Part shown: piece after piece, positions 28,516 through 58,656 of the stretch | Numbering within the stretch: position 1 is the stretch's first letter | How the letters are laid out: each line of letters starts with the position of its first letter | Virus record (IMG/VR): IMGVR_UViG_3300028025_006304 | Location: 1 to 64,000 of that record | Direction: 5' to 3' (one strand) | Source of the DNA: a virus | DNA length: 64,000 nt | Program-made: the position numbers and the translations under genes | Notes under the pieces: generated by a model | What the model was told of the DNA's origin: nothing | What the model saw: only the letters and a program-made list of their open reading frames with translations | Databases searched by the model: none

Positions 28516-29103
28516 TTACATTCTTTCAAGTGTTATACCTACCTTATCTGCTGGTACATAAGCAGTTTGACATATAATGGAAATATTATAACCAAACTCA
28601 TCTAAGCCTGGATTCCATAAAGGTGAAGGTAAAGGATAAGTAGCTCCTGCTGGGTTGGATGGTTGAGGTGAGTTAGGATAGTCTGGATCCTTACCTACAA
28701 AGTATTGGGCTGCATTTGTAGCTGTTACTTCATAGTAAGCGGTTTCCCATAAAATTATATCACCTATTTGAGGAACTAAATTAGCTCCGTAGATTGTATC
28801 CTCGTTGAAATCTTTTAATTTATCTAAAAGATCATCTCTTAAAAATTTAAATGTAGGTTTCCAGTCAAATGTTACACCCATGTCATCTGTGGGTTGAGAT
28901 TGGTCCGGAATATCAATTAAAGTATATAAAAGGATAGGACCATCATAAAACTTAGCTTCAGCAGCTTCACCATACATGTTAAAGTTTGTTTGAGTAAGTC
29001 TAAGTTTATAAAAAGCAGCTTGTTGAGAAATAATGTTACCCATCAACTCACGGTTAACGTATCTAAACATTGAAATGTCGCGAGACTGTCCAAAGAGAGC
29101 CAT
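28516..29103 (-). CDS. Neck/head-closure protein (gp14-like)
   Basis: NMYGEA...P.IGDIILW..YYEV; lies between gp13-like and gp15-like genes. Confidence 0.65.
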   Translation of the reverse strand: MALFGQSRDISMFRYVNRELMGNIISQQAAFYKLRLTQTNFNMYGEAAEAKFYDGPILLYTLIDIPDQSQPTDDMGVTFDWKPTFKFLRDDLLDKLKDFNEDTIYGANLVPQIGDIILWETAYYEVTATNAAQYFVGKDPDYPNSPQPSNPAGATYPLPSPLWNPGLDEFGYNISIICQTAYVPADKVGITLERM

Positions 29104-29444
29104 TATAAACGTTTTAAAGTGTTTATATCAAACCGAGCTCCTATAACCCCTAGTATTTTTAGATTATCGTTCTGACCTGAGGTTAGGATTTCTTGTTCAA
29201 ATTCTTTTATATCCTCTTCTGGTTTACCTGTTTTACTTAGAAATTTAATATTAACTAGAGTATATTCAATATTTTCTTTTTGTGGGTAATCTGGTGGGGT
29301 TATATTTCGTACAGTAGTAATTTTTCTTAAAGCACGGATTTGATCCAATATATCACTAATATTTTGGTTTTTATTAGATTTTATTACAACGTCTACCTCG
29401 TAGGTGTTTAATATCTCTGTTAGTATGTCTGTAAACTTTATCAT
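29103..29444 (-). CDS. Hypothetical protein with MIKFTDILTE leader
   Basis: 113-aa ORF coupled to both neighbours. Confidence 0.6.
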   Translation of the reverse strand: MIKFTDILTEILNTYEVDVVIKSNKNQNISDILDQIRALRKITTVRNITPPDYPQKENIEYTLVNIKFLSKTGKPEEDIKEFEQEILTSGQNDNLKILGVIGARFDINTLKRL

Positions 29445-30655
29445 CCTATAAATATTGTCATTGGGGTTTTATTCAATTCTGTTTGGGAAAAGTCTGCTTC
29501 TGCTGCTCTTCTTTCAAGCATGGATTGGCGAGATGTTTCATTAAAATATTCTCTTAACCTTACAATTAAAGCTTCTTTATCAGTAGCAGCAGATGAGGTT
29601 AAAGTATCTCCGTTTAAGGTAACTTCTGCACCTGGAATTGGGATTTGTGAATATTTGTTTCTAACATATCCTAGCATTTCTTTTGAAAGTGCTAAAGTAT
29701 ATTCAAAGATCCAGCTTCTACCTATTGAATTTATTTGAGAATAAACTGGGTTACCGTATGGAGCGTTTGAGACATTAGTGATTAATCCACTACCGCTAAC
29801 TCCACTTCCAGAAACTAATGAATTTTCTAAACGTTCGCTCTTAAGTAGATATTGGAACCAGTAATGGGTTCCTGTATCACCCTCTGTGGGACACGGAAAT
29901 ATTCTTAGCTTATTGTTTATAAGTTGAAAACTATAACCTGATAAAAGAATTTCATCAGCTAATTCTACTTGCTGGATGGCCGCCACGTTATATGCTAATG
30001 GGTTTTGTAAATAACCTATACCGCCAGCTCCTGCTACACCACCTAAAGCACCAAAGAAACCACCAAACCCAGATCCTAAACCAACAGCACCACCATAGTA
30101 GTAGGTAGCTGAAGCTGGAACACCATGATAAAATACATTTTGGATCTCTAAATTACTTCCTGAAATACCATTTTGTTGAGCCCAAACATCTAAATCATAA
30201 TCCTGAACTGAACCTGTTAATATAACCGAACCGGAATACCAATTGGTATTTCCTCCTACTCCTGCTGCCTCTCCATATTGTTCTGAGATGCGTATTACGT
30301 TAGCTAAGCTAGGGGTGATTTGGGTATTGTTTAATACGGGCGTAGATATAGGTAAACCCTCCAAGTTAAGCATGTTTTCTCTAACTTGGTAGGCATATAA
30401 TTCGTTACCATAGATAGTTGTTGCTTCTTCAAAGGCAGTCCAAAAGTTTAAGTCCTGTAGTTCTACGTTTTCAATAGGATATCCTAAACGTCTAGAACAG
30501 AAATTAGCTACCTTATTGGCATCTGTTTTAAAAGCAGAGTCATTATCATAAAATCCAAATGAAGTAGGTGAACTACCTGTTGATGGAGTATTATAATAGG
30601 AGGCTGATACTGCTGCAAATGAAGATGATCCAGGCCAAATAGGAATGTTTGCCAT
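29441..30655 (-). CDS. Neck protein (gp13-like adaptor)
   Basis: RRLGYPIENVEL; LSKEMLGYVRNKYSQIPIPGAEVTLNG. Confidence 0.8.
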   Translation of the reverse strand: MANIPIWPGSSSFAAVSASYYNTPSTGSSPTSFGFYDNDSAFKTDANKVANFCSRRLGYPIENVELQDLNFWTAFEEATTIYGNELYAYQVRENMLNLEGLPISTPVLNNTQITPSLANVIRISEQYGEAAGVGGNTNWYSGSVILTGSVQDYDLDVWAQQNGISGSNLEIQNVFYHGVPASATYYYGGAVGLGSGFGGFFGALGGVAGAGGIGYLQNPLAYNVAAIQQVELADEILLSGYSFQLINNKLRIFPCPTEGDTGTHYWFQYLLKSERLENSLVSGSGVSGSGLITNVSNAPYGNPVYSQINSIGRSWIFEYTLALSKEMLGYVRNKYSQIPIPGAEVTLNGDTLTSSAATDKEALIVRLREYFNETSRQSMLERRAAEADFSQTELNKTPMTIFIG

Positions 30656-31469: not shown

Positions 31470-32057
31470 TTATATTGAAAATTTATTACTTTTTTCTCTA
31501 TTATCTTCTTTCTTTAATGGTTGAGTGTTAGTATATTTAAAGGCCTCGTATAATTGTATCTCATCATTTAAATCAAAAGCATCTATTGGTTTGATATGGT
31601 CTATCTCCCAATACTCTCCATAATTGTCCCAATTTATATCCTGGTTAAACATTTGCTCAAGGTATTGAGTATATTCCTCCATTGTACATCCCAAATATTC
31701 TATAGTACGATCTTTTTTTAGGATTTGGTATGTTTTTAAAGCTTGTGAGATGCGTGCTGAGGTTATATGCTTTAATTTAAATCCTAAATCGGTGTGGTAT
31801 TTTGTTCTGTTCCATTCCCTGTATAACTCTTTTTTAGTGTGATAGTGGGTGGTACAATATTTGTTAAAATATTCTTTGTTTTGGTCGCGGTATACTTTGT
31901 AGTAGTCTGCTCTAGATTCTTTATTGTCTTGATACCATTGATCATTTAAGGGTTTAAGGCAAATTTTACAATATCTATGTTTACCGTCTTTACTATCTTT
32001 TCTATTAAAAAACTCTGTTAAGGGTTTTTTTATATTACATTTTTTACATTGTTTCAT
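31470..32057 (-). CDS. Free-standing HNH endonuclease
   Basis: CxxC...CxxC N-terminus; YLGC...NW.NYG..WEIDHI.P...NTQPL...N. Confidence 0.8.
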   Translation of the reverse strand: MKQCKKCNIKKPLTEFFNRKDSKDGKHRYCKICLKPLNDQWYQDNKESRADYYKVYRDQNKEYFNKYCTTHYHTKKELYREWNRTKYHTDLGFKLKHITSARISQALKTYQILKKDRTIEYLGCTMEEYTQYLEQMFNQDINWDNYGEYWEIDHIKPIDAFDLNDEIQLYEAFKYTNTQPLKKEDNREKSNKFSI

Positions 32058-32142: not shown

Positions 32143-33903
32143 TTACAAGCTGTTAAGACCCGAAACAAAAATTTTCGCATAAAATTCTGGACGTAACATC
32201 TTCTTAGCGTAACGAGTCAAGAGACCTTTTCTTGGAGTGAAGGTTTCTGGATCGTAGATAAGAGGAGTCATGATCAACGGAATGTAAGGAGCAAACACAG
32301 CACCGGCTTCCAAGAACTGAGTACCACGGAATCCCATAAGGATTGTGTTTTCAGTCATGTAAGGATTTTTGTAAACTGTGTAGCGGCTATTCAATTGACC
32401 AGCTTTCTGTACACCAAACGCGTATTCCATTTTGTCTGCAGAGCCATCAGAGTTTGAAGCGAATCCTGGGATTGATTCAATTACTGTAGCTACAGTTGGA
32501 GAACATACTAAGAAGTTTGCACCACCACGAAGGGTTAACTGGTGAATCTTGTTAGAAAGTTTCTGCATCTTAGTACCAAGGGTTTGGAACCACTGGCCTT
32601 GAGTGTTGTAGAAACCTGTTTGGCTAGTAGAAGTTGGGAAAGCAAATCCGTCTGCACTACCGTTGTAAACACCGTTGTTCAATACAGTCCAGTACTCAGT
32701 ACCAGCAGCTGCGTCTTCGATCAACATGTCAAGAATTTCGAGGTCGATTTCAAGAGAAATGTACTCGCTCATGATGTTTGTTACTTCAGCTTCTGCGTCA
32801 AGTGCCTGATAGGCATTAAGATCTTGGGCGAATTCTGGAGTCCAAACAGCCTTTAACTTCTTGGTCTTGGCAACAATTGCTTGTGACTGAAGTTGGATGT
32901 TGATTTCTGGGATTACAATTTCAGTAGCGCTTTCAGCGTTAGGAACAGCGAATGCGTTTCCAGCTTCGAAATCACCTACGTTGTAAGGAGACATTTGAGT
33001 AGCCTTGTTGTAGAATACAGTTAATGAACCAGACAAGTTAGCAGCAGATACAGTTTGAGAAGCTGTTACGTAGAAACTGATAGTACCATTTGTGTAGTTG
33101 TAGGTAGTAAAGTTAGGCAACAATGAAGCATCGGTAAGAGCAAATCCACCTACAGAGTAAGTAGGAACGAATCCTCTAACTGCGTCGGGGTCAAATGCTG
33201 TTAATGAAGCTGTAGGAACTACAATCTCGTATACTTGACCAGCAACAATAGAAGCTGATAGATCAGAGTCATAGTTTAAGTCTGCCCATGAAGCATCAGC
33301 GAATGAAGCAGTACCGGCACCAACAGTTGGTAGAGCACCACCATCGGCTGAACCTGTCAAGAATACAGAAGCTGAGAATTGGTTAGTTGAATAGGTAAAT
33401 CTTCCAGCACCGTAAAGACCACCGTTATTATTCTCACCTAAGTTATTAGTGTTTGTAGAGAATGGGTAGTTACCATTGGCTGAACCAGTGTTACCATAGA
33501 GTGATTTTCCAGCAGTGAATGGATTCTTAGTAGTTCCGTATTGGAAATCTAAGAAGAATACAAGACCGGAAGGTAGGTTCATAGGCTGTACAGAAACGAA
33601 TTCTTTAGCAGCGATTTGACCGAATACCTTACGTACTAATGGAAGAGCAATACCAGCCCATTCGGCACCTGTGCCGACTGAGAAGTTACCGAAACCAGTA
33701 CCACCACCTACAGAAGATTGCTCTACTACTAGTTGCTTGGCTTGGTTTTCTAGGATTAAAGACATGTTGTTCTTGTCGGTCTCCGAGCGAAGTCCTTCAA
33801 GTAAACCTGTTCTATCCCATTTTGAGGCTAATTTAGCCGCGTCAGACTGCATATTCTTCCAACCGGAAGCTGCAGACTCGAGTAATTGTTGTACTTGTGA
33901 CAT
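32143..33903 (-). CDS. Major capsid protein (gp23-like)
   Basis: LPLVRKVF, VQPMNLPSGLVF, KLKAVWTPEFAQDL, FAPYIPL, P..GLLTRY. Confidence 0.95.
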   Translation of the reverse strand: MSQVQQLLESAASGWKNMQSDAAKLASKWDRTGLLEGLRSETDKNNMSLILENQAKQLVVEQSSVGGGTGFGNFSVGTGAEWAGIALPLVRKVFGQIAAKEFVSVQPMNLPSGLVFFLDFQYGTTKNPFTAGKSLYGNTGSANGNYPFSTNTNNLGENNNGGLYGAGRFTYSTNQFSASVFLTGSADGGALPTVGAGTASFADASWADLNYDSDLSASIVAGQVYEIVVPTASLTAFDPDAVRGFVPTYSVGGFALTDASLLPNFTTYNYTNGTISFYVTASQTVSAANLSGSLTVFYNKATQMSPYNVGDFEAGNAFAVPNAESATEIVIPEINIQLQSQAIVAKTKKLKAVWTPEFAQDLNAYQALDAEAEVTNIMSEYISLEIDLEILDMLIEDAAAGTEYWTVLNNGVYNGSADGFAFPTSTSQTGFYNTQGQWFQTLGTKMQKLSNKIHQLTLRGGANFLVCSPTVATVIESIPGFASNSDGSADKMEYAFGVQKAGQLNSRYTVYKNPYMTENTILMGFRGTQFLEAGAVFAPYIPLIMTPLIYDPETFTPRKGLLTRYAKKMLRPEFYAKIFVSGLNSL

Positions 33904-33927: not shown

Positions 33928-35154
33928 TTAATTTCTTTTAATACCCGCTAAGATTTGCCATCTAGCGAATTGATCGTTTACCTCAAGGATTGGTTTCTTT
34001 TCTGGAGCCATACCTGCCGCTTTTGAGGCCATACCTCTCATTGATTCAGTAACAGCAGTTTTAGTTTCCTTAACTGTGGTTAATGTCTCATAGATAAGTT
34101 TAGCATCTCTTACGGAAGCAGCTTTATCAAAAGCTTCCAATACCTTTACTTTTTGTGTTTCGTTTAAATTCTTAGCTCTGAAGATTTTGTTAGTGTAAAG
34201 AAGTTTAGCGTTTAGAAGTTTTACTTCTGAAAGTGTTGAAGCGAGTTCTTGGATTGTGTTGTTCATTTCTTCTACTTCAGCGGCTTCTTCCATCTTTTTA
34301 CCAGCACTGACAGCACCGCCCAAAGCTGCTAGAAGTTCACCTACAGTTTTAACACCGAATAATTTCATTAACATCTCTTCAGACATGCCTTTGATTTTAC
34401 TCATAATGTTTTCATCAATTACTCCTTCTTCCATCTTTTTCTTAGATCTTTCATAGTCAGCAATACCTTCTTCTTCAGCGGTGTCTTTTTTAATTTTACC
34501 ACGCTTAGCAGAAGGAATATTATCTTTATTTCCACCGTAGTGCTTTCTTTCGGATACTATTTCCTCTTCATCTTCCATATCGATATCGATATCTTCTTCT
34601 TCGTCGTCTTCGAATTTTTCTCCGGCTTCGAGCTCACCAGCTCTAACCATGTCTTCAATTACGTCTTCGATTAAGTCTTTGAGCTCGTCTTCAGTCATGT
34701 CTTCAAGGTCGATTTCATCGTCCTCTTCACCTTCTTCTTCAGAATCCATTTCCATGTCATCCATGTCCATATCTTCTTCTTGTTCGTTTAGGGTTTCTTC
34801 CATTTTTTCTTCGTCGCTCATTTCCTCATCGAGTTCAGCTAAAAGTTCATCAAGATTCATCTCATCTACTTCAGGTTTTTCACGCATCTTTCCAGTACGT
34901 TTTTCTTCGGTATAGTTTGACATTTCTTCTACTTCTCCTTCGCTGTAGTTTTCTTCCATCTCTTTGTTGTCTTCTTCGTACATACCTTCTTCAGTTTCCA
35001 TTTCTGCTAATTTGGCAGAAAATCTTTCCTTTAGATATGGTGTAAAAGCTTCCTCAAGAGCGGCTTTAGCGTTTGCGATTGCTGCTTCTTTGACAGATTT
35101 AGCATCAGCAATAGCCTCTTTTAATAGGTTTCTATTTGCCATTGTTTTGTCCAC
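33928..35154 (-). CDS. Prohead scaffold/core protein (gp22-like)
   Basis: Very acidic, coiled-coil; directly upstream of the capsid gene; LLNAKLLY motif. Confidence 0.8.
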   Translation of the reverse strand: MDKTMANRNLLKEAIADAKSVKEAAIANAKAALEEAFTPYLKERFSAKLAEMETEEGMYEEDNKEMEENYSEGEVEEMSNYTEEKRTGKMREKPEVDEMNLDELLAELDEEMSDEEKMEETLNEQEEDMDMDDMEMDSEEEGEEDDEIDLEDMTEDELKDLIEDVIEDMVRAGELEAGEKFEDDEEEDIDIDMEDEEEIVSERKHYGGNKDNIPSAKRGKIKKDTAEEEGIADYERSKKKMEEGVIDENIMSKIKGMSEEMLMKLFGVKTVGELLAALGGAVSAGKKMEEAAEVEEMNNTIQELASTLSEVKLLNAKLLYTNKIFRAKNLNETQKVKVLEAFDKAASVRDAKLIYETLTTVKETKTAVTESMRGMASKAAGMAPEKKPILEVNDQFARWQILAGIKRN

Positions 35155-35349: not shown

Positions 35350-35958
35350 TTAGATGATTGGGCAGGTACCTTTTGCACAGAGAATTTCTGTTAAAATTCC
35401 ACTTGCTTTACTGTAATGGTTAATTGTGTTGTATTCTTTTCCTTCTTTTACTAGATGCATAAATGAACCTGGGTTGGATGGGGTTGATACAAAATCCCAA
35501 CATAGTAGTTCAAAATCGTCTTGTACTTCCATCATGCCTTCTCCCATTGGTTTAAGTGAGCCCATACCACGGGAAGAAACACCTACCATTACTCCACTGT
35601 CGATAAGTGCTTTAAGGATATTCCCGGAGACAGTCGGTAAAATTTCGATTTTACCTACAACGTGATCACCATCCCACCATATGTCGCGGATGATGTGGCA
35701 AACGTTTTTTAAATTGATTATTGACGAATCTGGGTGGTCTAATTCACCTGTGGCTCTGCTTTGTTTAACCACATCCATGTATTTGTCTATTTCACGCTGC
35801 CAAAGGTCTTTAGCGTAATATCTACCGTTACCATTTTTAACTTGAGCAGTAGCTAAGATACCTTCAACAAGGGGATTACCAGCTGGAGATTTGGTACCTT
35901 CAGTTAATTGAACAGGGTTAACCTGAAACGCTTGGGTTTCAATTAATACTTGTTTCAT
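35350..35958 (-). CDS. Prohead maturation protease (gp21-like)
   Basis: NGNGRYY, GELDHP, GVSSRGMGS, DFVSTPS. Confidence 0.92.
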   Translation of the reverse strand: MKQVLIETQAFQVNPVQLTEGTKSPAGNPLVEGILATAQVKNGNGRYYAKDLWQREIDKYMDVVKQSRATGELDHPDSSIINLKNVCHIIRDIWWDGDHVVGKIEILPTVSGNILKALIDSGVMVGVSSRGMGSLKPMGEGMMEVQDDFELLCWDFVSTPSNPGSFMHLVKEGKEYNTINHYSKASGILTEILCAKGTCPII

Positions 35959-36632
35959 TATTTTTTCTTAGGTAGGTCACCATATCCGCTTGCTTTGTGT
36001 TTGCCTTTAGCGGGTTCTCCTTCACCTAAACCAGGTGATGTTTTTGTATAGCCAATTCCTTTAATACCAAATGCAGCATTTTCTACATAGTATGAAGAGT
36101 TTTTAGCTAAATTTTTTCTAACAATTTCTTTTAATTCATCTATTGTTTTATCAACATTTTTAGGATCTTTCATCTCTGCGTAGTATCCCTCTAAAAATTC
36201 TTGACCATACAAATTGTCAATATTTTTATCATTAGAATATTCAAATCCAGTCATTTCTTGACTGTCTATAACTTCTTTAGATAAACTTTTTTCAACAGCT
36301 TTAGTACTTTGAATACCCATTGATTTAGGAGCAGAAATTGGATTTTCTTGTTGTGATGCGTATGTTTTACCAACGCCACCAGCTACTGTATATTCCTCGT
36401 TTACGTAGGAATCAAATGCTTTAAATGGATCAAAAGTACGTTGAGTAACAATACCACCACCTACTTTAATTTCGCTTAGAACACCTCTTTGTTTTAGAAT
36501 AGTAGTAACCTCATTATATGAGGCATAGTTTGTTACGTATTCTGGGAATAGTCTACGAGCAGATTTTAAGAACATATCTTTATGTCCTTTTCCTTCCTGG
36601 ATTAGATTAAATTGTTCTTGTAGGGTTTTCAT
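35958..36632 (-). CDS. Hypothetical head-region protein
   Basis: 224-aa ORF in the head operon. Confidence 0.6.
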   Translation of the reverse strand: MKTLQEQFNLIQEGKGHKDMFLKSARRLFPEYVTNYASYNEVTTILKQRGVLSEIKVGGGIVTQRTFDPFKAFDSYVNEEYTVAGGVGKTYASQQENPISAPKSMGIQSTKAVEKSLSKEVIDSQEMTGFEYSNDKNIDNLYGQEFLEGYYAEMKDPKNVDKTIDELKEIVRKNLAKNSSYYVENAAFGIKGIGYTKTSPGLGEGEPAKGKHKASGYGDLPKKK

Positions 36633-47661: not shown

Positions 47662-47934
47662 TCAGTCTAAATGTATTTTGACTTTTAAGGTGTCTTCACC
47701 TTTCCAAGCCCTGTGCCATTTGTGACGCATCATAAATATACGCATTTCGGGTTCAAGGTCAAAAGGTAACTGATCATCAAATTGCAGTTTCCAACCTTTT
47801 CCTACCTCTAGAATCTCTATTGTACGATTCTCATCATCGCGGTGCCAGAGTAGTTCAATCGGATCTATATTATCGTCGAACTCTCTAATAATGTATTGTT
47901 CTGTAACCTCTAAATCTTTATACGGTTTTGTCAT
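47662..47934 (-). CDS. Hypothetical cupin-like protein
   Basis: WHRD...HKWHR; start moved to MTKPY, overlapping the upstream stop. Confidence 0.55.
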   Translation of the reverse strand: MTKPYKDLEVTEQYIIREFDDNIDPIELLWHRDDENRTIEILEVGKGWKLQFDDQLPFDLEPEMRIFMMRHKWHRAWKGEDTLKVKIHLD

Positions 47935-48658: not shown

Positions 48659-49495
48659 TCACCAAAATCCTGTAAAATTTGATTTAAGACCCAATAACTT
48701 TGCGTATCTTGGGAGCCTACATGACCAGAATGATGCTTTTGTTTTGTCTTTTTTATTTTTACAATCGTGGCGGGCCGCAAATGCTCTACGTGCCTCTGGA
48801 TTGTTTATCTTAGCTGATAAACCTGAAGTATCACCAAATGATACTTTTTTAATCTTTTTAGTGCGTGGGTCGCGAACGTAAACATAGAATTTTTTAGAGC
48901 CACCGCGTTTTGGTTTGCCAATTGGGGGTGTTTTCTTTTTTTTATCTGCTTCTTCTAATTTTTTAGAGATTTTGTATAATCCCATTGACTCCATTCGCTC
49001 TAAACCATTTAAAGATACATTATTTACAGTTAAATTATTGTTTCCTACATTTAGACTTTTCATTTGATTAGGAGCTAACATTTTAGAAAAGGTTGGAATT
49101 GCTTTAAACCTATCTAAAAGTTTATTATTTTCAAAAGTAAGCGTAATTTCGTGGGTATTTTTTTTATCTGCTTCTTCTAATTCAATTTCTTCCATTATGA
49201 AATCTAATGGAACTTTTTTACCTTCGTATAAACCAAAATGACCTAAATCTGTTTCAGTTAGTATCTCTAAATCATCTCCTTGTACCTCAATGATGTTGCG
49301 GCTGTATAAAGCGCGTGCTTCTGCCCATAAATTGAAATAGCTTTCCGAGCCTGCACGATATACGTGCTCTGTAAGAGGTCGTGCGTTATCTAAGTGATAT
49401 TTCAACCCCTCGGAAAGGATTGCTTTTGGGGCTACACTTTCGTTTAGCACCACTGGTCTTTTTGAATCGCAAGTATTGCAGCCGCAGTCACACAT
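48659..49495 (-). CDS. Modular hypothetical protein (DUF6321-like C-terminus)
   Basis: KKFYVYV...KVSFGD...F.ARH.C...FWSCR; internal module bounded by LEEADKK twice. Confidence 0.65.
   Translation of the reverse strand: MCDCGCNTCDSKRPVVLNESVAPKAILSEGLKYHLDNARPLTEHVYRAGSESYFNLWAEARALYSRNIIEVQGDDLEILTETDLGHFGLYEGKKVPLDFIMEEIELEEADKKNTHEITLTFENNKLLDRFKAIPTFSKMLAPNQMKSLNVGNNNLTVNNVSLNGLERMESMGLYKISKKLEEADKKKKTPPIGKPKRGGSKKFYVYVRDPRTKKIKKVSFGDTSGLSAKINNPEARRAFAARHDCKNKKDKTKASFWSCRLPRYAKLLGLKSNFTGFW
48936..49182. repeat. Perfect 25-bp direct repeat pair
   Basis: ttttttttatctgcttcttctaatt at 48936-48960 and 49158-49182 (222 bp apart, in frame). Confidence 0.85.
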
Positions 49496-49496: not shown

Positions 49497-50471
49497 TTAT
49501 TTAAATAATCTAGGGAAGTTCATACCTAATTCAGAAGAAGAAACATAAACACCGTTTAATATTCTTTCACTATCTATATTATCTACTACAGTATCATTCA
49601 TAACATAGAATTTACCTTGTCCGTTTTCGCTTACGTTAAGTACATATCCTACGTCTTTACCCATTCTAGGTTTTTTTAGCAATTTAGTTTTTAAAATTTG
49701 CTTAAGCAATTTACCTGCACCTTCTTGGGGGCTGGCAGTTGGTGCTAAATCTAATCTAGAATATAAAGAATCAATACGCTTGTATAAAGGTTCAAACGCA
49801 TCTATGTCTCTTAATTGTTTGTTTTTCTCAAACATAGACATAATTTCGAAAGCTGGAAGTATATCGTTTCCTTTAAAGTTACCTGCGTTGATTGTAACAT
49901 CAGATTCTTCATCGAATTTGCTAAATAAAGTTAAAATTGCTATTACACTATTTAGTAATGCTATATTTGCTTTATCGCCTGCAAATTTACCTAAGGTAAT
50001 ATTAGAGGTATCGTATGATTTAATTTCGCATCCAAAACCATCAATGGTTAAATCCGGATCTTCTCCTTTTCTAGAATCGGTAACGTTGTGTTTATTAACG
50101 TTAAATTCAAAAGCCCAGTAAGTAGCAATTTCTCCTTTACCAGCACCTGCTGTTGGGATATCGCTGTCTTTTTTAAGTGGGAGGATTGGATATAAAATTT
50201 TCCAAATTTCTTCGTCTTTACCACCTAAATTAAAATCTTCACCTAGTTCTAAAGGAGTATTACAATCCGGAATTTTTTCACCTTCTTTTAAACCTAAAGC
50301 TTTACGAATCCTAACATTATAGTCTACTTGTGCCTCGTTAATAATAATTTCACCCATAAAATCTTCGGCTAGTTCAAATAACATAGCTTTATCTTTTGGG
50401 TCATTAATATCAGGGTATCCTTTTGGGAACTTCCAAGCTACACTTTTGATGAATTTATCTAATTGATTCAT
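49497..50471 (-). CDS. Hypothetical protein, possible PD-(D/E)xK fold
   Basis: GKGEIA...PDLTIDG...EIKSY. Confidence 0.55.
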   Translation of the reverse strand: MNQLDKFIKSVAWKFPKGYPDINDPKDKAMLFELAEDFMGEIIINEAQVDYNVRIRKALGLKEGEKIPDCNTPLELGEDFNLGGKDEEIWKILYPILPLKKDSDIPTAGAGKGEIATYWAFEFNVNKHNVTDSRKGEDPDLTIDGFGCEIKSYDTSNITLGKFAGDKANIALLNSVIAILTLFSKFDEESDVTINAGNFKGNDILPAFEIMSMFEKNKQLRDIDAFEPLYKRIDSLYSRLDLAPTASPQEGAGKLLKQILKTKLLKKPRMGKDVGYVLNVSENGQGKFYVMNDTVVDNIDSERILNGVYVSSSELGMNFPRLFK

Positions 50472-50914
50472 TATACTTCGGGTTCTGCTGCTGGTTCTTC
50501 TACTGGTGTTTCTGGAGTTGCTGTTTCAGCTCCTTCCGCCGGTGCTTCTGCTTTGCTTCCGTAACGTAATATACGAGAGATAGATTCGCAAGCCGACTCT
50601 TCTTCGTTCAAATTAAGTAGATAGTATTTTTTACCTTCTACTTGAGCAATCCAGCTTTTGGGTGTGTAAATAAGATAAAAATCTTGTCCGTTTTTTAGAT
50701 TGATACGGAATGTTGTAGGACGAGGAGCAACCCAATCAATTGAGGCTAAAAAGTAGTCAAAATCTGGAGATAATAGATCTACTATAACCGCTTTAAGTTC
50801 TGGGAATTTTGTTAGCTCATCGTATTCGGCAGCAGCAACGTTAGCCTTGAGTCTGCCTCTATAGACATCCTTGGTTAACGTTCTGATTTTGGCTACGAGT
50901 TCTTCACGAGTCAT
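50471..50914 (-). CDS. Hypothetical protein
   Basis: 147 aa with Pro/Glu/Ala-rich tail. Confidence 0.6.
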   Translation of the reverse strand: MTREELVAKIRTLTKDVYRGRLKANVAAAEYDELTKFPELKAVIVDLLSPDFDYFLASIDWVAPRPTTFRINLKNGQDFYLIYTPKSWIAQVEGKKYYLLNLNEEESACESISRILRYGSKAEAPAEGAETATPETPVEEPAAEPEV

Positions 50915-52083
50915 TATCCTCTAGCTTTTTGTTTTGCGGTTGGACCTTTACCACCACCTTTTGCTTTATATGAAGCTACAGCGCCAGCAATTGCTTTAGC
51001 GGCTTTTTCTGATTTGCCTCCTTTTTTAAGTTTACCAACAAGTTTTTCGAATGATTCGTCTAATTCAGCTGTTGCTTTTTTAAAGTAGCCTTTTGGTAAA
51101 CCTTCTGATACAGTACCCATAAATGCTCTAGCTTCGTCTTCGTCTGTAAATATTTTTTCTTTTTTACCGTCCATAGTACGGTAAGTAACAATCCAAAAAC
51201 GACCTTCTGGTTCTAGACTAGCGAGTTCGTTATGTCCTAAGTTACCTTCTTCGATTTCGTCTTCTAGAGGTTCAGAAGGAATATTTGGGATAATATCTTC
51301 ACCCGTAGCAACACCTACCATTGCATCGATTTCTGGTTCTTTTAATTCGAACTCAAGATAATGCTTAGCGCTAGAAACCATATTTTTAGCTGTGGTAATT
51401 TTTGCTTGCCACCATGCTGGGAAATCTACTTCACCTTCACCTTCAAATTGATCTACCATCTGGTAAAGTTCCATAGCGTATTTTCCAATACGATATAGTT
51501 CGCTTTTGATCATGTGTGGTTCGTCGTCTTCGTGGCCTAAGTCTAAATCCTCACCCAAACCTAAAGGTTTTCCTTCGTCATCATATGACATAGGAATTTC
51601 ATCTTCATCATCTAATTGAGCTTGGTCTGGGTTATAATCTTCGCCTACCATTTTACCACCAATATACTCTTCGTAATCAACAATAAAATCATCTTCACTG
51701 TAATCAACATATCCTTCTACCCCATTGAGGCGAATATCGTTAACTAATGATTTAACATAAGTAGCCCAATCTCTATCTTCAGGACCCTCCTTTAATTCAA
51801 TGCCTCTACCCTTAAGGATATCTGCTTTGGTCACTTTGCCATCGCCAGTTAAATCAGGAAATGATTTTTTCTTTTCGTTCATTAAGGCTGCTCTAACTAG
51901 TTCTTTTAGATTTGATTTTTCCATTTCAGATTCTGCTACTTTTTTTGCTATGTTTGTGGCGCGACCATACATTACTTTCTCAGCGTCTGGACCATAACGC
52001 TTAACAAGACTATGCTTGTTTTTTTTCATCTTTTGGATGACGTCTTCGCGTTTGGCGAGTTCGGCTGAAGAAAGTTTTGCCAT
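50914..52083 (-). CDS. Modular acidic protein with a dockerin/EF-hand-like loop
   Basis: PDLTGDGKVTKAD; many [ILV]-x-E sites between segments. Confidence 0.6.
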   Translation of the reverse strand: MAKLSSAELAKREDVIQKMKKNKHSLVKRYGPDAEKVMYGRATNIAKKVAESEMEKSNLKELVRAALMNEKKKSFPDLTGDGKVTKADILKGRGIELKEGPEDRDWATYVKSLVNDIRLNGVEGYVDYSEDDFIVDYEEYIGGKMVGEDYNPDQAQLDDEDEIPMSYDDEGKPLGLGEDLDLGHEDDEPHMIKSELYRIGKYAMELYQMVDQFEGEGEVDFPAWWQAKITTAKNMVSSAKHYLEFELKEPEIDAMVGVATGEDIIPNIPSEPLEDEIEEGNLGHNELASLEPEGRFWIVTYRTMDGKKEKIFTDEDEARAFMGTVSEGLPKGYFKKATAELDESFEKLVGKLKKGGKSEKAAKAIAGAVASYKAKGGGKGPTAKQKARG

Positions 52084-52267: not shown

Positions 52268-52906
52268 TTATTTAATTTTATTCCAAAGTGGGAAAGCTAA
52301 ACCTTCGTTTAATTTTTCTCCGGCTTTTTTTCCTTTTTCGTATTCGTATCTTTCGTCGTCGCCAACGTATTTTTCTTCTTGATCTTCAACCTCGTCTACT
52401 TTTGCTCTTGTTGGCTCGTCTCCTGCAACTACAAAGTCGCGAGTAAAGAATGTGATTGTATTACCAACCTGAGTGATAAATTTTTGATCACCAAATTCTT
52501 CTGCTTGTGCTCTTAGAGTTTCAAGTGTGTCAAGAATTTTTCTTGTTTCGTTTGGAAGTGAAGATAAAGAAACGATTTTCTTGTCTACTACGATCGAGTC
52601 ATTTTTTTCTTCTCCACCGTCTGTAGTTTCTGCTTCAGCGTCTACTTCAATATCTGTTTCTTCTTCGTCTCCTTTAGCTTCTGCTAGATAAGGATCAACT
52701 GCAGTTCCAGTGATACGAGCTAAGATTTCTTCAGCTGATTCTTCTTCGTCGGCTTCGTCTAGATTAGCGATCATTTCGTCTAGATCTTCTTCGTATAGAT
52801 CATCGTACATACCACCTAAAGCAGCATCGTCGTCTTGAGCATTAGTAAAGTCTGCTTCTGATAGGTAAGCAGCCTTGATCATTTCTTTTAAGTCGGATTT
52901 TTTCAT
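52268..52906 (-). CDS. Acidic hypothetical protein with MKKSDLKEMIK leader
   Basis: 212 aa; LSEA, LDEA, LAEA, LNEG. Confidence 0.6.
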   Translation of the reverse strand: MKKSDLKEMIKAAYLSEADFTNAQDDDAALGGMYDDLYEEDLDEMIANLDEADEEESAEEILARITGTAVDPYLAEAKGDEEETDIEVDAEAETTDGGEEKNDSIVVDKKIVSLSSLPNETRKILDTLETLRAQAEEFGDQKFITQVGNTITFFTRDFVVAGDEPTRAKVDEVEDQEEKYVGDDERYEYEKGKKAGEKLNEGLAFPLWNKIK

Positions 52907-52937: not shown

Positions 52938-52941
52938 GTGT

Positions 52942-53223
52942 TTATTTCCTAAAGCGTACTTTGGCCTTAGGTGTGTTCGATACAAACTGTTTACCTTTTT
53001 TACTACCAGCTACTTTTTTTCTTGCGGTAGCTGCTCTTTGTGCTTTAGTTAAGCGTTGTGCTTTTGCTTTTGGTAAGCAACGTGTTGTTGCTTGACCTTT
53101 TTTCATCGTACCACAAGGACCTGTTATATTACCTGCAGTATCAATACGCACCCAGTTCTCTTTTTTGAACCAATCGCGTAGCGATTCTGTGATTATCTCT
53201 TGTAGACGTTCTTGGGTTATCAT
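52942..53223 (-). CDS. Small basic protein (DUF5872-like)
   Basis: LRDWFKKENW...RCLPKAKA. Confidence 0.6.
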   Translation of the reverse strand: MITQERLQEIITESLRDWFKKENWVRIDTAGNITGPCGTMKKGQATTRCLPKAKAQRLTKAQRAATARKKVAGSKKGKQFVSNTPKAKVRFRK

Positions 53224-53906
53224 CCCTTCATTTGCCCTTTACATACTTTAACAGCACGGCCTGAAAGATAGGCGGATGATTTCTCACCAGCAGCCATTCT
53301 TTTCTTAATATATGCTTTACCTTTTGGGCAAAGTTCCTCGTAGATAACACTTTCACCTAAACGTGATGTTTTTGCTTCATCTAAATCCTGGATGATTTTA
53401 TTTAGGATTCTACTCATTGTATCCGGAGTAAGACCAGGTGTTTCACCTTTTGGATTTTCGGGTGATACTAGTTGTGGAGAGTAACCTACTTCTTCTTTAA
53501 TTTCGACGTTTGGGTCAAGAGCTCTATAGGCGTCTTCAAGGGCTTTTTTTAAGATATTAATAGCAGGTGTATTATCTCTATTTTTAGAAAAAATTTGAGC
53601 TGCTAATTTAGCCGCTAAAGTTTCAATTTGCTTTTTTGGAACTAGAAGAGTCTCATCTACTTGCTCACCTCCACCAACTAAATCGTTGTAATCTTCCATT
53701 GAAAGAAGACCTCTCAATTTAACTGCCTCAATAGCGCGTTCAGTTACATTGTGAAGGTCCATATCTGTTTTAGCATCTTCTCTAGCGTATTCTAACATAC
53801 GAATAAAGAGAGGAACATCCATAGCGATTATATCGGTTGGATCTTCTTGTTGAGCTTCTCCCATTGGTTTAGAGAAAAACTCTTGTACTCTTTTTAGGTC
53901 TTCCAT
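53220..53906 (-). CDS. Modular hypothetical protein
   Basis: MDVPLFIRMLEYAREDA module; C-terminal LCPKG...SAYLSG.AVKVCKG module. Confidence 0.6.
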   Translation of the reverse strand: MEDLKRVQEFFSKPMGEAQQEDPTDIIAMDVPLFIRMLEYAREDAKTDMDLHNVTERAIEAVKLRGLLSMEDYNDLVGGGEQVDETLLVPKKQIETLAAKLAAQIFSKNRDNTPAINILKKALEDAYRALDPNVEIKEEVGYSPQLVSPENPKGETPGLTPDTMSRILNKIIQDLDEAKTSRLGESVIYEELCPKGKAYIKKRMAAGEKSSAYLSGRAVKVCKGQMKG

Positions 53907-54380: not shown

Positions 54381-54962
54381 TTAGGTTTTCTTTAAACTTT
54401 GCAAATATTTAATAGTTTCCTCTTTTGACTCAAGGAGTTTATTTTTGACTGAACCTGTCCATTTTTCTACGTCACCTGCCTCCGTAATATACGACTGGAT
54501 AGCATTGTGTTTGATTTCCTCGTTCATCCATAGCTCAAACGTTTCTATAATACCTTCAATATCTGAATTGTAGATTGTTTTTTCATATTCTTCCCAAAGT
54601 CCTTCTCTACGGATAGCTGCTTCAAAATCTATTTGGCAGTTAAAACAGCGTTTATACATGCTAAACCACTTTTTATCCAAATGTGGTTTCATTGTTTTCT
54701 TACAGGAAGGACAAAAAATGGGGAAATTAACCGCTTCACGAGCTTTATCAAGTTTTGTAACATTTTGTTTAATGCCATCCTTAATAGTCCACGTCTTATC
54801 TTCTTGATCCCATATATCTCCTTCGATATGTGGACCTTCTTGTTCTTTTGTAAAACCGACTGAAGTTGAGGATTTATCTGCATATTTTCCTTTTACTAGG
54901 TTTCTTAGACGTTGTACATCTTTTTCCTGGAATTGTTTTTTTAGAACATTTTCTTTACTCAT
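54381..54962 (-). CDS. Zn-ribbon-containing hypothetical protein
   Basis: CPSC...CFNC. Confidence 0.6.
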   Translation of the reverse strand: MSKENVLKKQFQEKDVQRLRNLVKGKYADKSSTSVGFTKEQEGPHIEGDIWDQEDKTWTIKDGIKQNVTKLDKAREAVNFPIFCPSCKKTMKPHLDKKWFSMYKRCFNCQIDFEAAIRREGLWEEYEKTIYNSDIEGIIETFELWMNEEIKHNAIQSYITEAGDVEKWTGSVKNKLLESKEETIKYLQSLKKT

Positions 54963-57493
54963 AAACCTAAGTCTTGTAACTGTTTGATTGTGTTAGCTGC
55001 TGAAGTGTGTAATATACCAATTCCACCATTAGCATTCCATGAATCGATAGTATCTTTTCTATCGTCTATTAAAATTTTATTTTGCCCAGCAAAATCGGCT
55101 TTCCTTTTAGCGGAACGAAAATATAATTTACGCATGTTAGGTAAACGTTGAACCCACTCGGTTTTACCTTGCATTGATTCGTTATTGTCTAACTTATAGC
55201 GTTCCTCAAATGGGATATCGAAATTAACAGAGGGGGCAGTTAAAACGTATGGGTTATATTCTTTGATATAGTCCCAAAGTTGTTTTCCATCGGGCATCCA
55301 ATCTAGGTTAGCCCAATATGAACGTTCGGGGATGTCTTTTTCTTTTAGACTGTTTCTAAATAAACTCCAAAATTCGTTTTTACCTTGTGAATCGGCGTGT
55401 TGAGTACTTACACCTGTTAGTTCTTTATACCCCTCATCGAAGTCCACTAACACACCATCCATATCACAAAATATCACATATTTCTTCTCTCTCATTTCCC
55501 CATCATTTTCATTAACACCCGTATTATGAAGGTACGAGATCTCTTCTAGGGGGGCAAGTTTAGCTACGAGTGCTGAGCCTTCTTTTTCAAATTTTGCTTT
55601 AGGGTATACTTTTTTGATGAATGCTTGGTAGAGATTATCGCGTTGGTTTCCCAAAACATCTTCACCTTTTTTAGGTGCTGGGTTATAAATTAACGCGTTA
55701 GTGTTTTTAAAGTCGGGGATGAGTTTGATTCCGGTTTGGATTATGTCTACTATTGTAGCCATCACTCGGAATACCTCTCCTCTGTTTATTACAGCACTAT
55801 CTGATTTACTTACACCCTTCTCTCCAGCTCCAAATCCGACCTCCATTCCATTTATATCCTCTCCTGTCTCATCATCCTCGTAATTGAGGGTTGTCAATTC
55901 AACCTCATATTCGATTCCACTGTCTGTAGTAAAACCAAACTCATAATCGCCTGGGTTAGTATTGGTAATTTCCCATTCATAGGGTTTTGAGGTGGCTTCT
56001 CCAACCTCTTGTAAACCCATAGCCAATTCACGAGCGTATTGGTTTAAACCGAATGGGTCTTTTACAGTTTTAAGTTTAATATCTGAGTTTTGAAGAAATT
56101 GTCCTTTAGGTGCTTTTTTAGGTTCAGAAGAAACCAACGAACCCTCATTTTGTAAACTATCAGTCCAGTTACGGAATGTCATAGTACCCTTTAGGTTAGC
56201 TTCAGCTTCAATATCGTTTAGATGATCGTCCTCTTGAGTATTTGTAGTTGTAATATCTCCCAATCTACCCTCCAGATTTTGGATATGGTGAATCATCTCA
56301 TGCGCGTAAGAACGCACAATATCTTTGGGATGACGCCCGTAAGTGTATAGGGTGATAGACTTATTGATCGGATCATAGTACGCGGTTTTACCCAAGAATT
56401 CTTCGGCATTAACCATATCATCACCTACTAGCTCAATGCTGGGAACAGGATCAATATTATATCCTTTCCCACGCATGTAATTAGTTAACTCGGCTATTTT
56501 TTCGAGTATGTCAATAGATGGGATAGTGTTTTCTTTTAACGGTTTATACCCTGAACCAAATGGAGCTGATTTACCATCATGGTTAGGTGCTACGTTTTCT
56601 TTTTTTAGACGTTGGGTTTTTTCTTTAGATGCTTCTTTTCTTTGTTCAGCATAATCTAAAGCTGTTTTTAAACGTCTTTTAACCTCAGGATCTTTTGCTC
56701 TTTCGTAAGCTGCTCTAACACGCTGGTGAATTAAATTAATAATTTGAGATTGGCGAGCGTGTGATTTTGATTTAAAAGATTCTTTAGATAGTGTGTCTAT
56801 AATATCTTGTTTAGTAGAGAATTTAACACCTACAGTATCGCTTGGATCTTCGTCTGTGTATAATCTACGAGATGATCCTTTTGGTTTTTTACCTGTACCT
56901 GTTTTAGGATCTCCTTCTTTTAAAACGTTTGGTTCTAAAATATTGTAAATATCTTCCTTTTCGTTAGCTGGAATCTCAGTAGGGAGATAAGTAAAGAATT
57001 TTTCTTTATCCCCTTTTTGAAGTGCTTTACGAGCGTTTGTTCCACTCATATCACCAGCTGGGGTTTTAATTACTCGAACCTCTATGTTAGGGTATTTTTC
57101 TTCTACCCCCTTGGTGCGAGAGATAATATCTTGTAAATCATCTTCTCTACCTTCACGGTAACCCAAAACAAAATATACTTTCTCGTCTGGGTGGTTTTTA
57201 GCATAACGTAAGATATCTCCGATTGGGGAAGCTGATGGTTCTATTTGAACTTTAGATGGGAGCAATTCCTTGTAAATATCCCATATTTGCATAGATTGTT
57301 CTTGTTCGATTCCATCTCTAACACCCCCACCAACATAGATTAAAAATTTGTCTATGTCTTTAAAATCTTTTAAAGCTGTTTTAACTAAGTCAAAGTGACC
57401 TTTGGTGGGTGGTTTAAAACCACCCCCATAGATTGCTGTAACGGATTTTCCGTCTATTAGCTCGTTAACTAAAAACTTAGTTAATTCGTCCAT
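54959..57493 (-). CDS. Multidomain protein: HxGH nucleotidyltransferase + zincin-like domain + HAD 5'(3')-nucleotidase
   Basis: GGFKPPTKGH and MSGTNARK; RSYAHEMIHH; CDMDGVLVDF...LIDD. Confidence 0.75.
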   Translation of the reverse strand: MDELTKFLVNELIDGKSVTAIYGGGFKPPTKGHFDLVKTALKDFKDIDKFLIYVGGGVRDGIEQEQSMQIWDIYKELLPSKVQIEPSASPIGDILRYAKNHPDEKVYFVLGYREGREDDLQDIISRTKGVEEKYPNIEVRVIKTPAGDMSGTNARKALQKGDKEKFFTYLPTEIPANEKEDIYNILEPNVLKEGDPKTGTGKKPKGSSRRLYTDEDPSDTVGVKFSTKQDIIDTLSKESFKSKSHARQSQIINLIHQRVRAAYERAKDPEVKRRLKTALDYAEQRKEASKEKTQRLKKENVAPNHDGKSAPFGSGYKPLKENTIPSIDILEKIAELTNYMRGKGYNIDPVPSIELVGDDMVNAEEFLGKTAYYDPINKSITLYTYGRHPKDIVRSYAHEMIHHIQNLEGRLGDITTTNTQEDDHLNDIEAEANLKGTMTFRNWTDSLQNEGSLVSSEPKKAPKGQFLQNSDIKLKTVKDPFGLNQYARELAMGLQEVGEATSKPYEWEITNTNPGDYEFGFTTDSGIEYEVELTTLNYEDDETGEDINGMEVGFGAGEKGVSKSDSAVINRGEVFRVMATIVDIIQTGIKLIPDFKNTNALIYNPAPKKGEDVLGNQRDNLYQAFIKKVYPKAKFEKEGSALVAKLAPLEEISYLHNTGVNENDGEMREKKYVIFCDMDGVLVDFDEGYKELTGVSTQHADSQGKNEFWSLFRNSLKEKDIPERSYWANLDWMPDGKQLWDYIKEYNPYVLTAPSVNFDIPFEERYKLDNNESMQGKTEWVQRLPNMRKLYFRSAKRKADFAGQNKILIDDRKDTIDSWNANGGIGILHTSAANTIKQLQDLGL

Positions 57494-57856
57494 TTACTGA
57501 AGCTTCATGATAAGCTCTTTTGCCTTAGCTTTCTTATCAGCGATTGCTGTTTTAGCTGCTCTATACTCTTCCATTTCGCGCTTAAGAGCTTCTTTCTGCA
57601 TTTCGTACTCTTTCATAGCTGTTTTAGCATGTTTGCGAGCCGCTGATTTATTAGTACCTGCATAAGCAGCTGCAATCTCGTTCATGTCAATAGTATCGTA
57701 GATTGAAGCAGGACGGATCATATCATCCATAGACATACCTCTCATTGGTTTCATTACAAGAATGATTTCGCCAATCTCGTTATATGGCTCTTTCATTTCC
57801 ATTGTTTCTGCTTCAAGGGCTTCCTTAATAAGGGATTTTAATACTGATTTTTTCAT
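57494..57856 (-). CDS. Hypothetical protein with MKKSVLKSLIKE leader
   Basis: 120 aa, basic helical C-terminus. Confidence 0.6.
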   Translation of the reverse strand: MKKSVLKSLIKEALEAETMEMKEPYNEIGEIILVMKPMRGMSMDDMIRPASIYDTIDMNEIAAAYAGTNKSAARKHAKTAMKEYEMQKEALKREMEEYRAAKTAIADKKAKAKELIMKLQ

Positions 57857-58656
57857 GAGTTAAGGAATTGTTTTATTTTAGACTGAGCCTCTGGGATAGA
57901 GACTGTTTGTTGAATAATATTTTGTACGTTTTCTTTGTTGCGTAATGATAGAATTTCCTGTTCTAGTTTTTCTTTATCAGCTCTGGATTTAGCTGCTTCT
58001 TTTTCTGTTTTTGGTTTGGTATCTTGTGGTTTGAAAGGATCAATATAACGTTTAATTATATCTTCTAAACTTCTTTTACCAAACGGATCCTTGTCTTTTG
58101 TAGTAGCTACAAAGTTTTGACCAAATAAGTTAAGGTACGGGATAAAGTTTTTTGTTACGTTTGCCCATGTTTGCATTACAATACCTGGCATCAAACTTCT
58201 ATCCTCACCAGCTGAACGCTCGAATCTATCTTCGTTTTTCTTAAGTGATTTTTCAAGTGAAGAGTATACAAATACCATCATTACATCATATCCAGCTTCC
58301 TCTAATGTTTCCTTTAATTTAACGGTTTCATTATATGATGCTGCTGTACCGTCAATGACAATATTCCCACGCTTTTCAATTTCTTGTTTTAACTCAGCCT
58401 TATAAGGTTCTTTAGCTGATGCCATTGCTATAGCTGCTCCACTTCTACCAGCAGCATCTGCTCTTTTTAGATCAAGTGAGATGCCAGCGTTGCGGAGATT
58501 TTTAATAAAATAATCATCAATATTTAGTACCGTTAAACCAAGATCACGGATTATCTCATCTGTAACAGATGATTTTCCAGCACCGGGAGCCCCAGCAAGT
58601 ATAATAGCTTTAGGAGAACCTTGTACCTCCTTTAGTAATCTTATCAGTGAAATCAT
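57853..58656 (-). CDS. Zeta-toxin-like/AAA_33 P-loop kinase
   Basis: AIILAGAPGAGKS, NIDD, VIDGT, GYDVMMVFV. Confidence 0.75.
   Translation of the reverse strand: MISLIRLLKEVQGSPKAIILAGAPGAGKSSVTDEIIRDLGLTVLNIDDYFIKNLRNAGISLDLKRADAAGRSGAAIAMASAKEPYKAELKQEIEKRGNIVIDGTAASYNETVKLKETLEEAGYDVMMVFVYSSLEKSLKKNEDRFERSAGEDRSLMPGIVMQTWANVTKNFIPYLNLFGQNFVATTKDKDPFGKRSLEDIIKRYIDPFKPQDTKPKTEKEAAKSRADKEKLEQEILSLRNKENVQNIIQQTVSIPEAQSKIKQFLNS

Follow-up and report, generated by a model that had tools for sequence, protein, structure and literature searches.

The capsid-targeting sequence (CTS) of bacteriophage T4 has been studied for decades and is in use as an engineering tool. It is borne by IPI, IPII and IPIII, which are internal proteins, and by Alt, and the head protease gp21 takes it off (Mullaney & Black, 1996; for reviews see PMC9026906 and PMC3012670). 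The CTS, whose sequence is confirmed in PMC8442874, consists of the first 10 residues of IPIII, with residues 4 and 7 acting in targeting and residues 8 and 10 in processing, and gp21 cuts after L/I-x-E (PMC9026906). In the jumbo phages phiKZ, 201phi2-1 and SPN3US a relative of gp21 processes numerous head proteins by cutting after Glu, and N-terminal propeptides on ejection or inner-body proteins are thought to target these proteins into the prohead (PMC5694885; PMC9026906). The Dar antirestriction proteins of phage P1 also have N-terminal capsid-targeting regions (PMC9024508). We describe here short N-terminal leaders, shared by otherwise unrelated proteins, in positions 1 to 64,000 of the IMG/VR virus record IMGVR_UViG_3300028025_006304 (this whole stretch is referred to as the window). 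The leaders are probably capsid-targeting propeptides of the T4 type that are removed by the head protease of the phage. No paper in the literature that we searched describes this leader system.

The window is the first part of a single contig of 118,602 bp, in a record that is about 69% complete, and essentially all of its genes lie on the minus strand. On sequence grounds the phage is a distant T4-like phage of Flavobacterium-type bacteria, with Bacteroidota as the predicted host phylum. The closest annotated phages are the Flavobacterium phages vB_FspM_immuto (immuto; capsid protein 53% identical), followed by Microcystis phage Mel-JY01 and Rhodothermus phage RM378. A megablast of 25 kb against the GenBank phages gave no DNA-level match, and relatives were reached via protein searches. 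With the 48340-48657 protein as anchor, 364 relatives were gathered in IMG/VR, and 80 of these loci (1.2 Mb, 1636 open reading frames, ORFs) were analysed.

The preliminary description of the window had listed nine N-termini from 29103-58656 as amphipathic leaders ending in [ILV]-x-E. All nine are present, on the minus strand; the one at 48657 starts at an internal ATG of a longer TTG ORF, directly after the stop of the upstream gene. It had also proposed to set the frequency of the motif against that in other classes of gene, and the comparison turned out as anticipated. The bare tripeptide, with its Glu at residues 5-25, was found in 25 of the 39 N-termini of the block, against 34% of internal windows of the same proteins (binomial p = 1.5e-4). 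Outside the block it was found in 32 of 117 N-termini, against 24% internally, which is not significant, and the block differed from the remainder (Fisher p = 8.6e-5). Such a tripeptide, however, is seen in about a third of random 21-residue windows, and once seven canonical leader genes and four head genes are set aside, what remains is weak (14/28, p = 0.064). The strong signal comes from two specific leader classes and not from the bare tripeptide.

The first class, Type A, reads M-I-K-L-x-D-I-L-x-E with the Glu exactly at position 10, and is found on four genes (search pattern M-I-x-[FL]-x-x-[IL]-L-x-E). The second, Type B, reads M-K-x-S-x-L-K-x-x-I-[KR]-[EA] and is also found on four genes, one of them beyond the window, at genome positions 77777-78184. 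Position-specific scoring matrices (PSSMs) trained solely on the leaders of other phages single out exactly these eight proteins, four of each type, and every other N-terminus and internal window scores far lower. The Type A N-termini score 15-21, against 8.9 for the top internal window, and the Type B N-termini 23-32, against 15.2. When the first 22 residues of the eight proteins were removed, BLAST found no similarity among the bodies. The shared leaders are real, as first described, but the single list pools at least two distinct classes with some chance [ILV]-x-E matches. One of its leaders, quoted with an A-L-E end, has its motif in I-K-E at residue 12 instead, and the leaders quoted for 52942-53223 and 35958-36632 fall in neither Type A nor Type B.

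Two observations concern the Type B pattern itself. The leader of 77777-78184 is composite: it opens as Type B, and at residues 20-28 has a core that resembles Type A and ends in L-L-E. The best internal Type B match of the genome, with the top internal score given above, lies at residue 55 of 50914-52083, and may represent a fused module or an alternative start.

A motif search on the N-termini of related phages, as the preliminary description had proposed, showed that Type A recurs in the 80 loci, that it is specific to the N-terminus and that it sits on unrelated bodies. The Type A pattern occurs at 188 of the 1636 N-termini, against 0.26 expected from its internal frequency, an enrichment of about 700-fold. 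With strict clustering of the bodies, Type A was found on 54 clusters, Type B on 27-34 and a third class, Type C, on 9; the clusters that carry any type of leader in the lineage number 123. Taking one representative per body family, the Type A profile is M-I-K-L-[ITL]-D-I-L-[KN]-E, in which Lys3 and Asp6 are conserved though the search pattern left them free. Among the representatives, position 4 is Leu in 51 of 55, position 7 is Ile or Leu in 55 of 55, and position 8 is Leu or Ile in 55 of 55. When positions 1-8 alone were constrained, residue 10 was Glu in 186 of 201 cases (93%), against a background of 7.9%. Conservation collapses past residue 10 in Type A, Type B leaders span 12-20 residues, and in alignments of homologs the similarity of the bodies starts within a few residues past the terminal Glu of the leader. 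For Lys, Asp and Glu, the entropy of synonymous codons in the leaders is equal to or above that in the bodies, and the upstream DNA is not conserved. Because synonymous sites vary freely and the upstream DNA is unconserved, selection acts on the peptide and not on a DNA or RNA element.

Codon use at the two Ile positions of Type A was also recorded in the 80 loci. The Ile7 codon is ATA in 44 of 45 Ile cases, against only about half of the Ile codons elsewhere, and at Ile2 the codons ATT, ATA and ATC are freely used.

The leaders are exchanged between bodies. In immuto the same classes of leader are found on different proteins, together with the recurrent Type C leader, M-E-N-F-D-L-K-K-F-L-V-E-N. 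The flanking genes (primase, exonuclease, a large nucleotidyltransferase protein, terminase and portal) are syntenic with those of immuto; most of the tagged genes have no immuto homolog, and other tagged genes fill the same slots there. In different phages one and the same body family carries a Type A, B-like, Type C or M-K-I-R-I-K-E leader, or none, and there are further families in which A, B-like and M-R-I-R-I-K-E-E leaders occur side by side, or in which a leader is lacking. One candidate was rejected: the 49497-50471 family, at first scored as carrying a shortened Type A leader, is a false positive whose own conserved N-terminus merely resembles the loose pattern.

The preliminary description had tied the leaders to a protease of the T4 gp21 type and likened them to the targeting sequence on T4's internal proteins, and at the level of sequence both links were borne out. 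A gp21-family protease is encoded at 35350-35958 and matches the T4 gp21 structure 5JBL at 1e-16, and the leaders end in the cutting motif of this family. One S77 protease was found in each of the 5 large related contigs, three of which are complete genomes. Type A has hydrophobic residues at positions 4, 7 and 8 and Glu at 10, and agrees with the T4 CTS both in length and in this 4/7/8/10 pattern. The gp21-cut propeptide of the T4 vertex protein gp24 has the same 10 residues and the same pattern; unlike Type A, it sits on a protein of the capsid shell and not on exchangeable cargo.

Parallels in position, read directly from the T4 genome, extend to the head proteins themselves. T4 gp21 has L-I-E at residue 9 and the protease here L-I-E at residue 7. 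The N-terminus of the scaffold parallels that of T4 gp22, with L-K-E9 followed by Ala where gp22 has I-A-E9 followed by Ala. T4 gp23 is cut at L-T-E65 (E65/A66); the capsid protein here has V-V-E61 (33721-33729) and that of immuto V-S-E59. V-V-E61 aligns within one residue of the gp23 site, just ahead of the Gly-rich start of the conserved shell domain, and is likely, from this alignment, to be the capsid maturation site, in place of the L-L-E at residue 9 singled out earlier. The candidate core protein 35958-36632 has a 13-residue leader ending in I-Q-E that is the most T4-like in sequence, sharing M-K-T-x-Q-E and the terminal I-x-E with the T4 CTS, a match that is too short for statistics. 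This leader is kept in the immuto ortholog, although the two bodies share no more than 27% identity. Applied to T4 as a positive control, the blind search for N-termini that are alike on non-homologous bodies recovered the known CTS proteins. In the T4 genome (NC_000866) we also noted, at 18966-19130, an ORF of 54 codons with the CTS-like start M-K-T-F-K-E-F-I-K-E.

In relatives, the C-terminal tail of the scaffold (33931-33978 here) is copied as an N-terminal leader. The tail motif, Q-x-x-R-[WM]-Q-x-L-A-G-[IL], has 23 occurrences in the data set. Three are at the extreme C-terminus of a scaffold (this phage, immuto and one IMG/VR contig), 19 lie within the first 20 residues of a protein, on 16 unrelated bodies, and one is at a mis-called start. 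Where the motif serves as leader, I-x-E comes next. As R-[WM]-[QK]-x-L-A-G-I-x-K, the tail is kept in phages with no more than 46-55% identity between their capsid proteins, and also in the Mel-JY01 scaffold (record positions 23855-24970); the motif is not found in T4 gp22. Bodies with the scaffold-tail leader carry B-like or Type C leaders in other phages, and the members of one such pair are 79% identical. In well-studied phages the C-terminus of the scaffold binds the coat protein. If it does so in this clade, the tail-type leader would address its cargo to the docking site of the scaffold. A complex prediction for the scaffold with the 48340-48657 protein gave a score of 0.01, which counts neither for nor against binding. 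The idea that the Type B leader mimics the N-terminus of the scaffold was dropped, as this N-terminus is not among the top matches of the Type B core PSSM.

Set beside the T4 CTS, the leaders share a 10-residue N-terminal tag, a homologous protease and the conservation of the tag while unrelated bodies vary between related phages. As in T4, the putative cargo includes small basic proteins and at least one enzyme. Every feature of the T4 CTS that we examined at the level of sequence is found here, except similarity of the tag's own sequence, where the likeness is one of pattern. Unlike T4, whose single tag reads M-K-T-Y-Q-E-F-I-A-E, the lineage has at least four or five interchangeable leader classes, one of which, in relatives, copies the scaffold tail. 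A genome has about 8 tagged genes, and Type A alone heads at least 54 body families in the lineage, where T4 has a handful; modules are also fused into long proteins with relics of leaders at the joints, and the hosts are Bacteroidota. The propeptides of the jumbo phages differ in being mostly over 100 residues long and in their motif, S/A-x-E, and for them cleavage and packaging have been shown by mass spectrometry. The Dar proteins of P1 resemble the system described here in that an N-terminal region addresses cargo to the head, and the P1 cargo is anti-defence; they have no shared short consensus leader and no motif of the gp21 type, and their loading hierarchy depends on other Dar proteins.

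The leader-bearing genes and the head genes of the window are collected in Table 1.

Table 1. Leader-bearing genes, genes related to them and principal head genes of the window. PSSM values are those of the matrix for the respective leader type.
Feature	Positions	Strand	Leader or other detail
Type A leader protein, 113 aa	29103-29444	-	leader codons 1-10 (29415-29444); PSSM 20.1 (internal maximum 8.9)
Type A leader protein, 141 aa, Cys-rich body	47918-48343	-	leader 48314-48343; PSSM 21.4
Type A leader protein, 105 aa	48340-48657	-	leader 48628-48657; PSSM 20.8
Type A leader and zeta-toxin-like P-loop kinase, 267 aa	57853-58656	-	leader 58627-58656
Type B leader protein, 266 aa	43443-44243	-	PSSM 31.8 (internal maximum 15.2)
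Type B leader protein, 212 aa, very acidic, pI 4.1	52268-52906	-	PSSM 23.2
Type B leader protein, 120 aa	57494-57856	-	PSSM 23.4
Small very basic protein, 93 aa, pI 11.6	52942-53223	-	divergent 13-residue leader ending in I-T-E
Protein with family-level leader evidence only	53220-53906	-	Type A, Type B or shortened Type A on 17 of 35 homologs; own N-terminus non-canonical
Multi-module enzyme, 844 aa	54959-57493	-	chain from nucleotidyltransferase to HAD 5'-nucleotidase
Major capsid protein	32143-33903	-	Pfam Gp23, 1.4e-72
Scaffold, gp22-like, acidic	33928-35142	-	between protease and capsid genes; 25 [ILV]-x-E sites
Prohead serine protease, T4 gp21 family	35350-35958	-	Pfam Peptidase_S77, 2.1e-28
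Candidate prohead core protein, 224 aa	35958-36632	-	directly upstream of protease, in the position of T4 genes 67 and 68
T4-type portal	39270-41159		Pfam Portal_T4, 9.4e-70
Large terminase	41183-42748		Pfam

The most conserved of the cargo candidates is 48340-48657, with a leader on 73 of 80 homologs; its mature form would be of 10.7 kDa with a pI of 9.1, and Foldseek found no match for its model in the PDB at E <= 0.001. Its neighbour, 47918-48343, has homologs with Type A or shortened Type A leaders in 20 of 24 cases, and one with a different, longer leader on the same body. The kinase 57853-58656 matches Pfam Zeta_toxin from residue 12 on (1e-15; 58.2 bits, against a cut-off of 22.3). The P-loop, G-x-x-G-x-G-K, is invariant in 14 members of the family, and the best Foldseek matches are zeta, PezT and polynucleotide kinases, with 1GVN and 3Q8X at the top; in sequence, the similarity to solved zeta toxins is marginal. 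AlphaFold models of two unrelated tagged proteins, 48340-48657 and the kinase, were built on family alignments; in both, residues 1-10 form a short, low-confidence helix that a coil sets apart from a confident body. In the first the pLDDT is 65 for the leader and about 98 for the body. In the second these values are 53 and about 90, and the coil lies between the leader and strand 1.

The 29103-29444 gene sits among neck and head-completion genes and belongs to no Pfam or PHROG family; the immuto gene in its slot is unrelated by BLAST and is without a Type A leader. The basic protein 43443-44243 is rich in Lys, Glu and Ala and has a nested set of [ILV]-x-E sites, with Glu at residues 12, 17 and 20, and both homologs found are likewise Type B. 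Homologous bodies of 52268-52906 in relatives have a Type C leader instead, and for 57494-57856 no homolog was found in immuto or in the 80 loci. The match of 52942-53223 to PHROG 23735 begins only at residue 14, and 14 of its 30 homologs have a Type A or shortened Type A leader. In the 48659-49495 family the N-terminus of many members is a Cys-rich extension, C-x-C-G-C-N-x-C, after which come L-L-T-E and Gly, and that of others is Type A or Type B; the Cys-rich start may be a further class of leader, or a metal-binding one.

It had been suggested that much of the 43-58 kb block is head cargo, which is too broad. Canonical leaders are found on 6 of the 24 genes of 42.7-58.7 kb, and on at most 13 of 24 when genes with leader-bearing homologs are counted. 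In an audit of homologs, leaders were absent throughout from terminase (35/35), portal (24/24), primase (32/32), exonuclease (35/35), FAD oxidoreductase (39/39), AAA_28 ATPase (29/29), 47662-47934 (47/47) and 54381-54962 (53/53). Nor was there a leader in any homolog of 45877-46149 (19-47 homologs each for this gene, the AAA_28 ATPase, the FAD oxidoreductase and 47662-47934), and the cupin 45531-45875 has only 2 homologs, both leaderless. By this audit the enzymes of 43-47.9 kb are not candidates for cargo. The families that are often tagged lie at about 47.9-58.7 kb and include 50914-52083 (9/25 homologs) and 48659-49495 (14/63). The predicted mature forms in this genome range from very basic to very acidic, and only about 9 of the 54 Type A body representatives have a Pfam match, among them the zeta-like kinase, ParB_N, GNAT and several DUFs. 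The suggestion that the tagged proteins include enzymes held: Type A or M-K-I-R-I-K-E leaders are found on 14 of 15 homologs of the kinase, and nucleotidyltransferase and nucleotidase modules are tagged in relatives.

These modules recur in the 844-aa protein 54959-57493, which comprises a nucleotidyltransferase with a HIGH motif, a basic domain, a middle domain, one domain to which no function is assigned, and lastly a HAD 5'-nucleotidase (residues 667-843; PHROG deoxyribonucleotidase, 6.7e-27). Relics of leaders are found at the joints between modules, at residues 181-193 (56915-56953) and 492-499 (55997-56020). In relatives, separate proteins with Type A leaders of their own match residues 189-322 and 494-646 at 30-80% identity, and I-L-E187 / L-K-E193 and L-Q-E496 align with the terminal Glu of the leaders of these stand-alone homologs. 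The protein may be a cargo polyprotein that is cut by the head protease.

The window has 24 copies of the octamer ATATTTAT, where about 12 would be expected on the two strands together, and all but one of the 24 lie on the coding strand. It is found 11-46 nt upstream of sheath, tube, portal, neck, fibre and baseplate genes, and also upstream of 5 of the 8 canonical leader genes, including 29103-29444 (11 nt), 43443-44243 (31 nt) and 52268-52906. In the genome, 23 of the 24 copies proximal to a start lie in the structural part, at 0-81 kb. This distribution suggests that the leader genes are co-expressed with the virion genes. In the small-gene region at 82-106 kb a different upstream word, T-T-C-G-T-A-T-A-T-T, is enriched, and the split by upstream word suggests two classes of promoter.

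Two other features of the window were noted. At 22000-25400, within gene 21984-25385, the GC content is 54%, against about 33% elsewhere, and many spurious plus-strand ORFs overlap this region. A 221-aa stretch of the same gene is 69% identical to part of a 1297-aa protein at genome positions 64627-68520, and this part of the window is probably a repetitive fibre domain. The Cys-rich paralogs 31470-32057, which adjoins the capsid gene, and 44814-45488, in the cargo block, are 41% identical over 152 aa; the second has no Pfam match, and immuto has no homolog of either. Both may be mobile genes of an endonuclease-like kind.

Taken as capsid-targeting propeptides, the leaders would work as follows. 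During head assembly the short N-terminal amphipathic helix would dock the tagged protein on the scaffolding core or on the inner surface of the capsid. After closure of the shell, the gp21-family protease would cut past the Glu of the leader: after Glu10 in Type A, with Leu8 at P3, and in Type B at a single site or at several nested ones (residues 12, 16 and 20). The mature protein would then stay inside the head and could be ejected with the DNA. The tag would be a portable module, which related phages put on different bodies and of which they exchange the types on the same body. A role of the tagged proteins in host takeover or anti-defence, as the preliminary description had it, would be a further step.

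Several points weigh against this interpretation. Our search of the literature for proteomics or N-terminomics of virions, or for cleavage data, on this phage and its relatives found none. The likeness of Types A and B to the T4 CTS is one of pattern and not of sequence, and [ILV]-x-E is a motif of low information, further copies of which lie in the bodies and would need protection from cutting. The scaffold-tail leader is not found in this genome, so that its evidence stands at the level of the lineage and comes from relatives. The Type B gene 77777-78184 lies among baseplate genes, both here and in immuto, a location equally compatible with a function elsewhere than in the head. Finally, no family with a shared leader was found in RM378, which is more distant and has gp21; the system is therefore not universal among gp21 phages.

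It is possible, though unlikely, that the tagged proteins enter proheads as auxiliary parts of the core or scaffold or to help condense the DNA, or are degraded and expelled like T4 gp22, gp67 and gp68, with no payload being delivered. Several bodies are of low complexity and highly charged (pI 4.1, 9.2 and 11.6) and have many internal [ILV]-x-E sites, like the core proteins of T4; the gene upstream of the protease is in the gp67/gp68 position, and no body matches a known anti-defence family. Folded enzymes, however, are hard to explain as scaffolding, and they include the zeta-like kinase with its intact P-loop, GNAT, ParB_N and the nucleotidyltransferase and nucleotidase modules. The repertoire is also hypervariable between close relatives, in the manner of arms-race cargo such as the T-even internal proteins (PMC3012670).

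It is improbable that the leader, instead of being a capsid address, is a recognition tag for a different common partner, for instance an enzyme that modifies the proteins or a chaperone. A common N-terminal tag on many unrelated proteins does mark systems with one maturase and many substrates as well, and the relatives encode GroEL/GroES. Against this, the tag ends in a protease motif with its 93% Glu, one leader type copies the scaffold tail, and the T4 CTS and the gp24 propeptide have the same pattern; moreover, no radical-SAM enzyme is encoded in this genome, of which the record holds only about 69%.

We give even less than this slight weight to the idea that the leaders are pro-sequences, which would keep the proteins inactive or time their destruction in the cytoplasm and be removed by a protease without encapsidation. 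A zeta-toxin-like kinase could harm the infected cell if active too early, and its leader abuts the first strand of the P-loop fold. T4 gp21, however, is active only inside proheads (PMC9026906), the tagged bodies are mostly small non-enzymes, and the mimicry of the scaffold tail points to a role in binding within the head. Lastly, AT-rich genomes do favour M-K-K and M-I-K starts, and the bare tripeptide is common, but similarity by chance, composition or translation-initiation bias is refuted by the N-terminal enrichment, the fixed position of the Glu, the free synonymous sites and the clean separation by the PSSMs.

Capsid targeting and removal by the head protease remain the reading that we favour, and their significance lies in the generality of the CTS outside the T-even phages, in its binding partner and in the true size of the 'injected proteomes' of phages. 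In a distant and environmentally abundant lineage, represented by its relatives in IMG/VR, the same logic would operate with a much larger set of exchangeable cargo and with several types of tag. The copy of the scaffold tail offers a concrete and testable hypothesis for what tags of the CTS type bind and, if correct, the scaffold-tail tag would identify their long-unknown docking site; the immuto phages and their host, Flavobacterium sp. LMO8, are in culture. More tentatively, loading of the capsid might be plug-and-play, through interchangeable tags that include the capsid-binding tail of the scaffold, with enzymes that are pre-loaded, injected and active before the phage genes are expressed. 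With similar reserve, the zeta-like kinase and the nucleotidyltransferase-nucleotidase chain, the latter cut by the head protease at its relic leaders, might be among the pre-loaded proteins. It is an equally speculative thought that injected enzymes might counter host defences that target nucleotides or NAD. If the interpretation is correct, the tagged proteins of this lineage would form a catalogue of candidate first-strike effectors, most of them without a known family.

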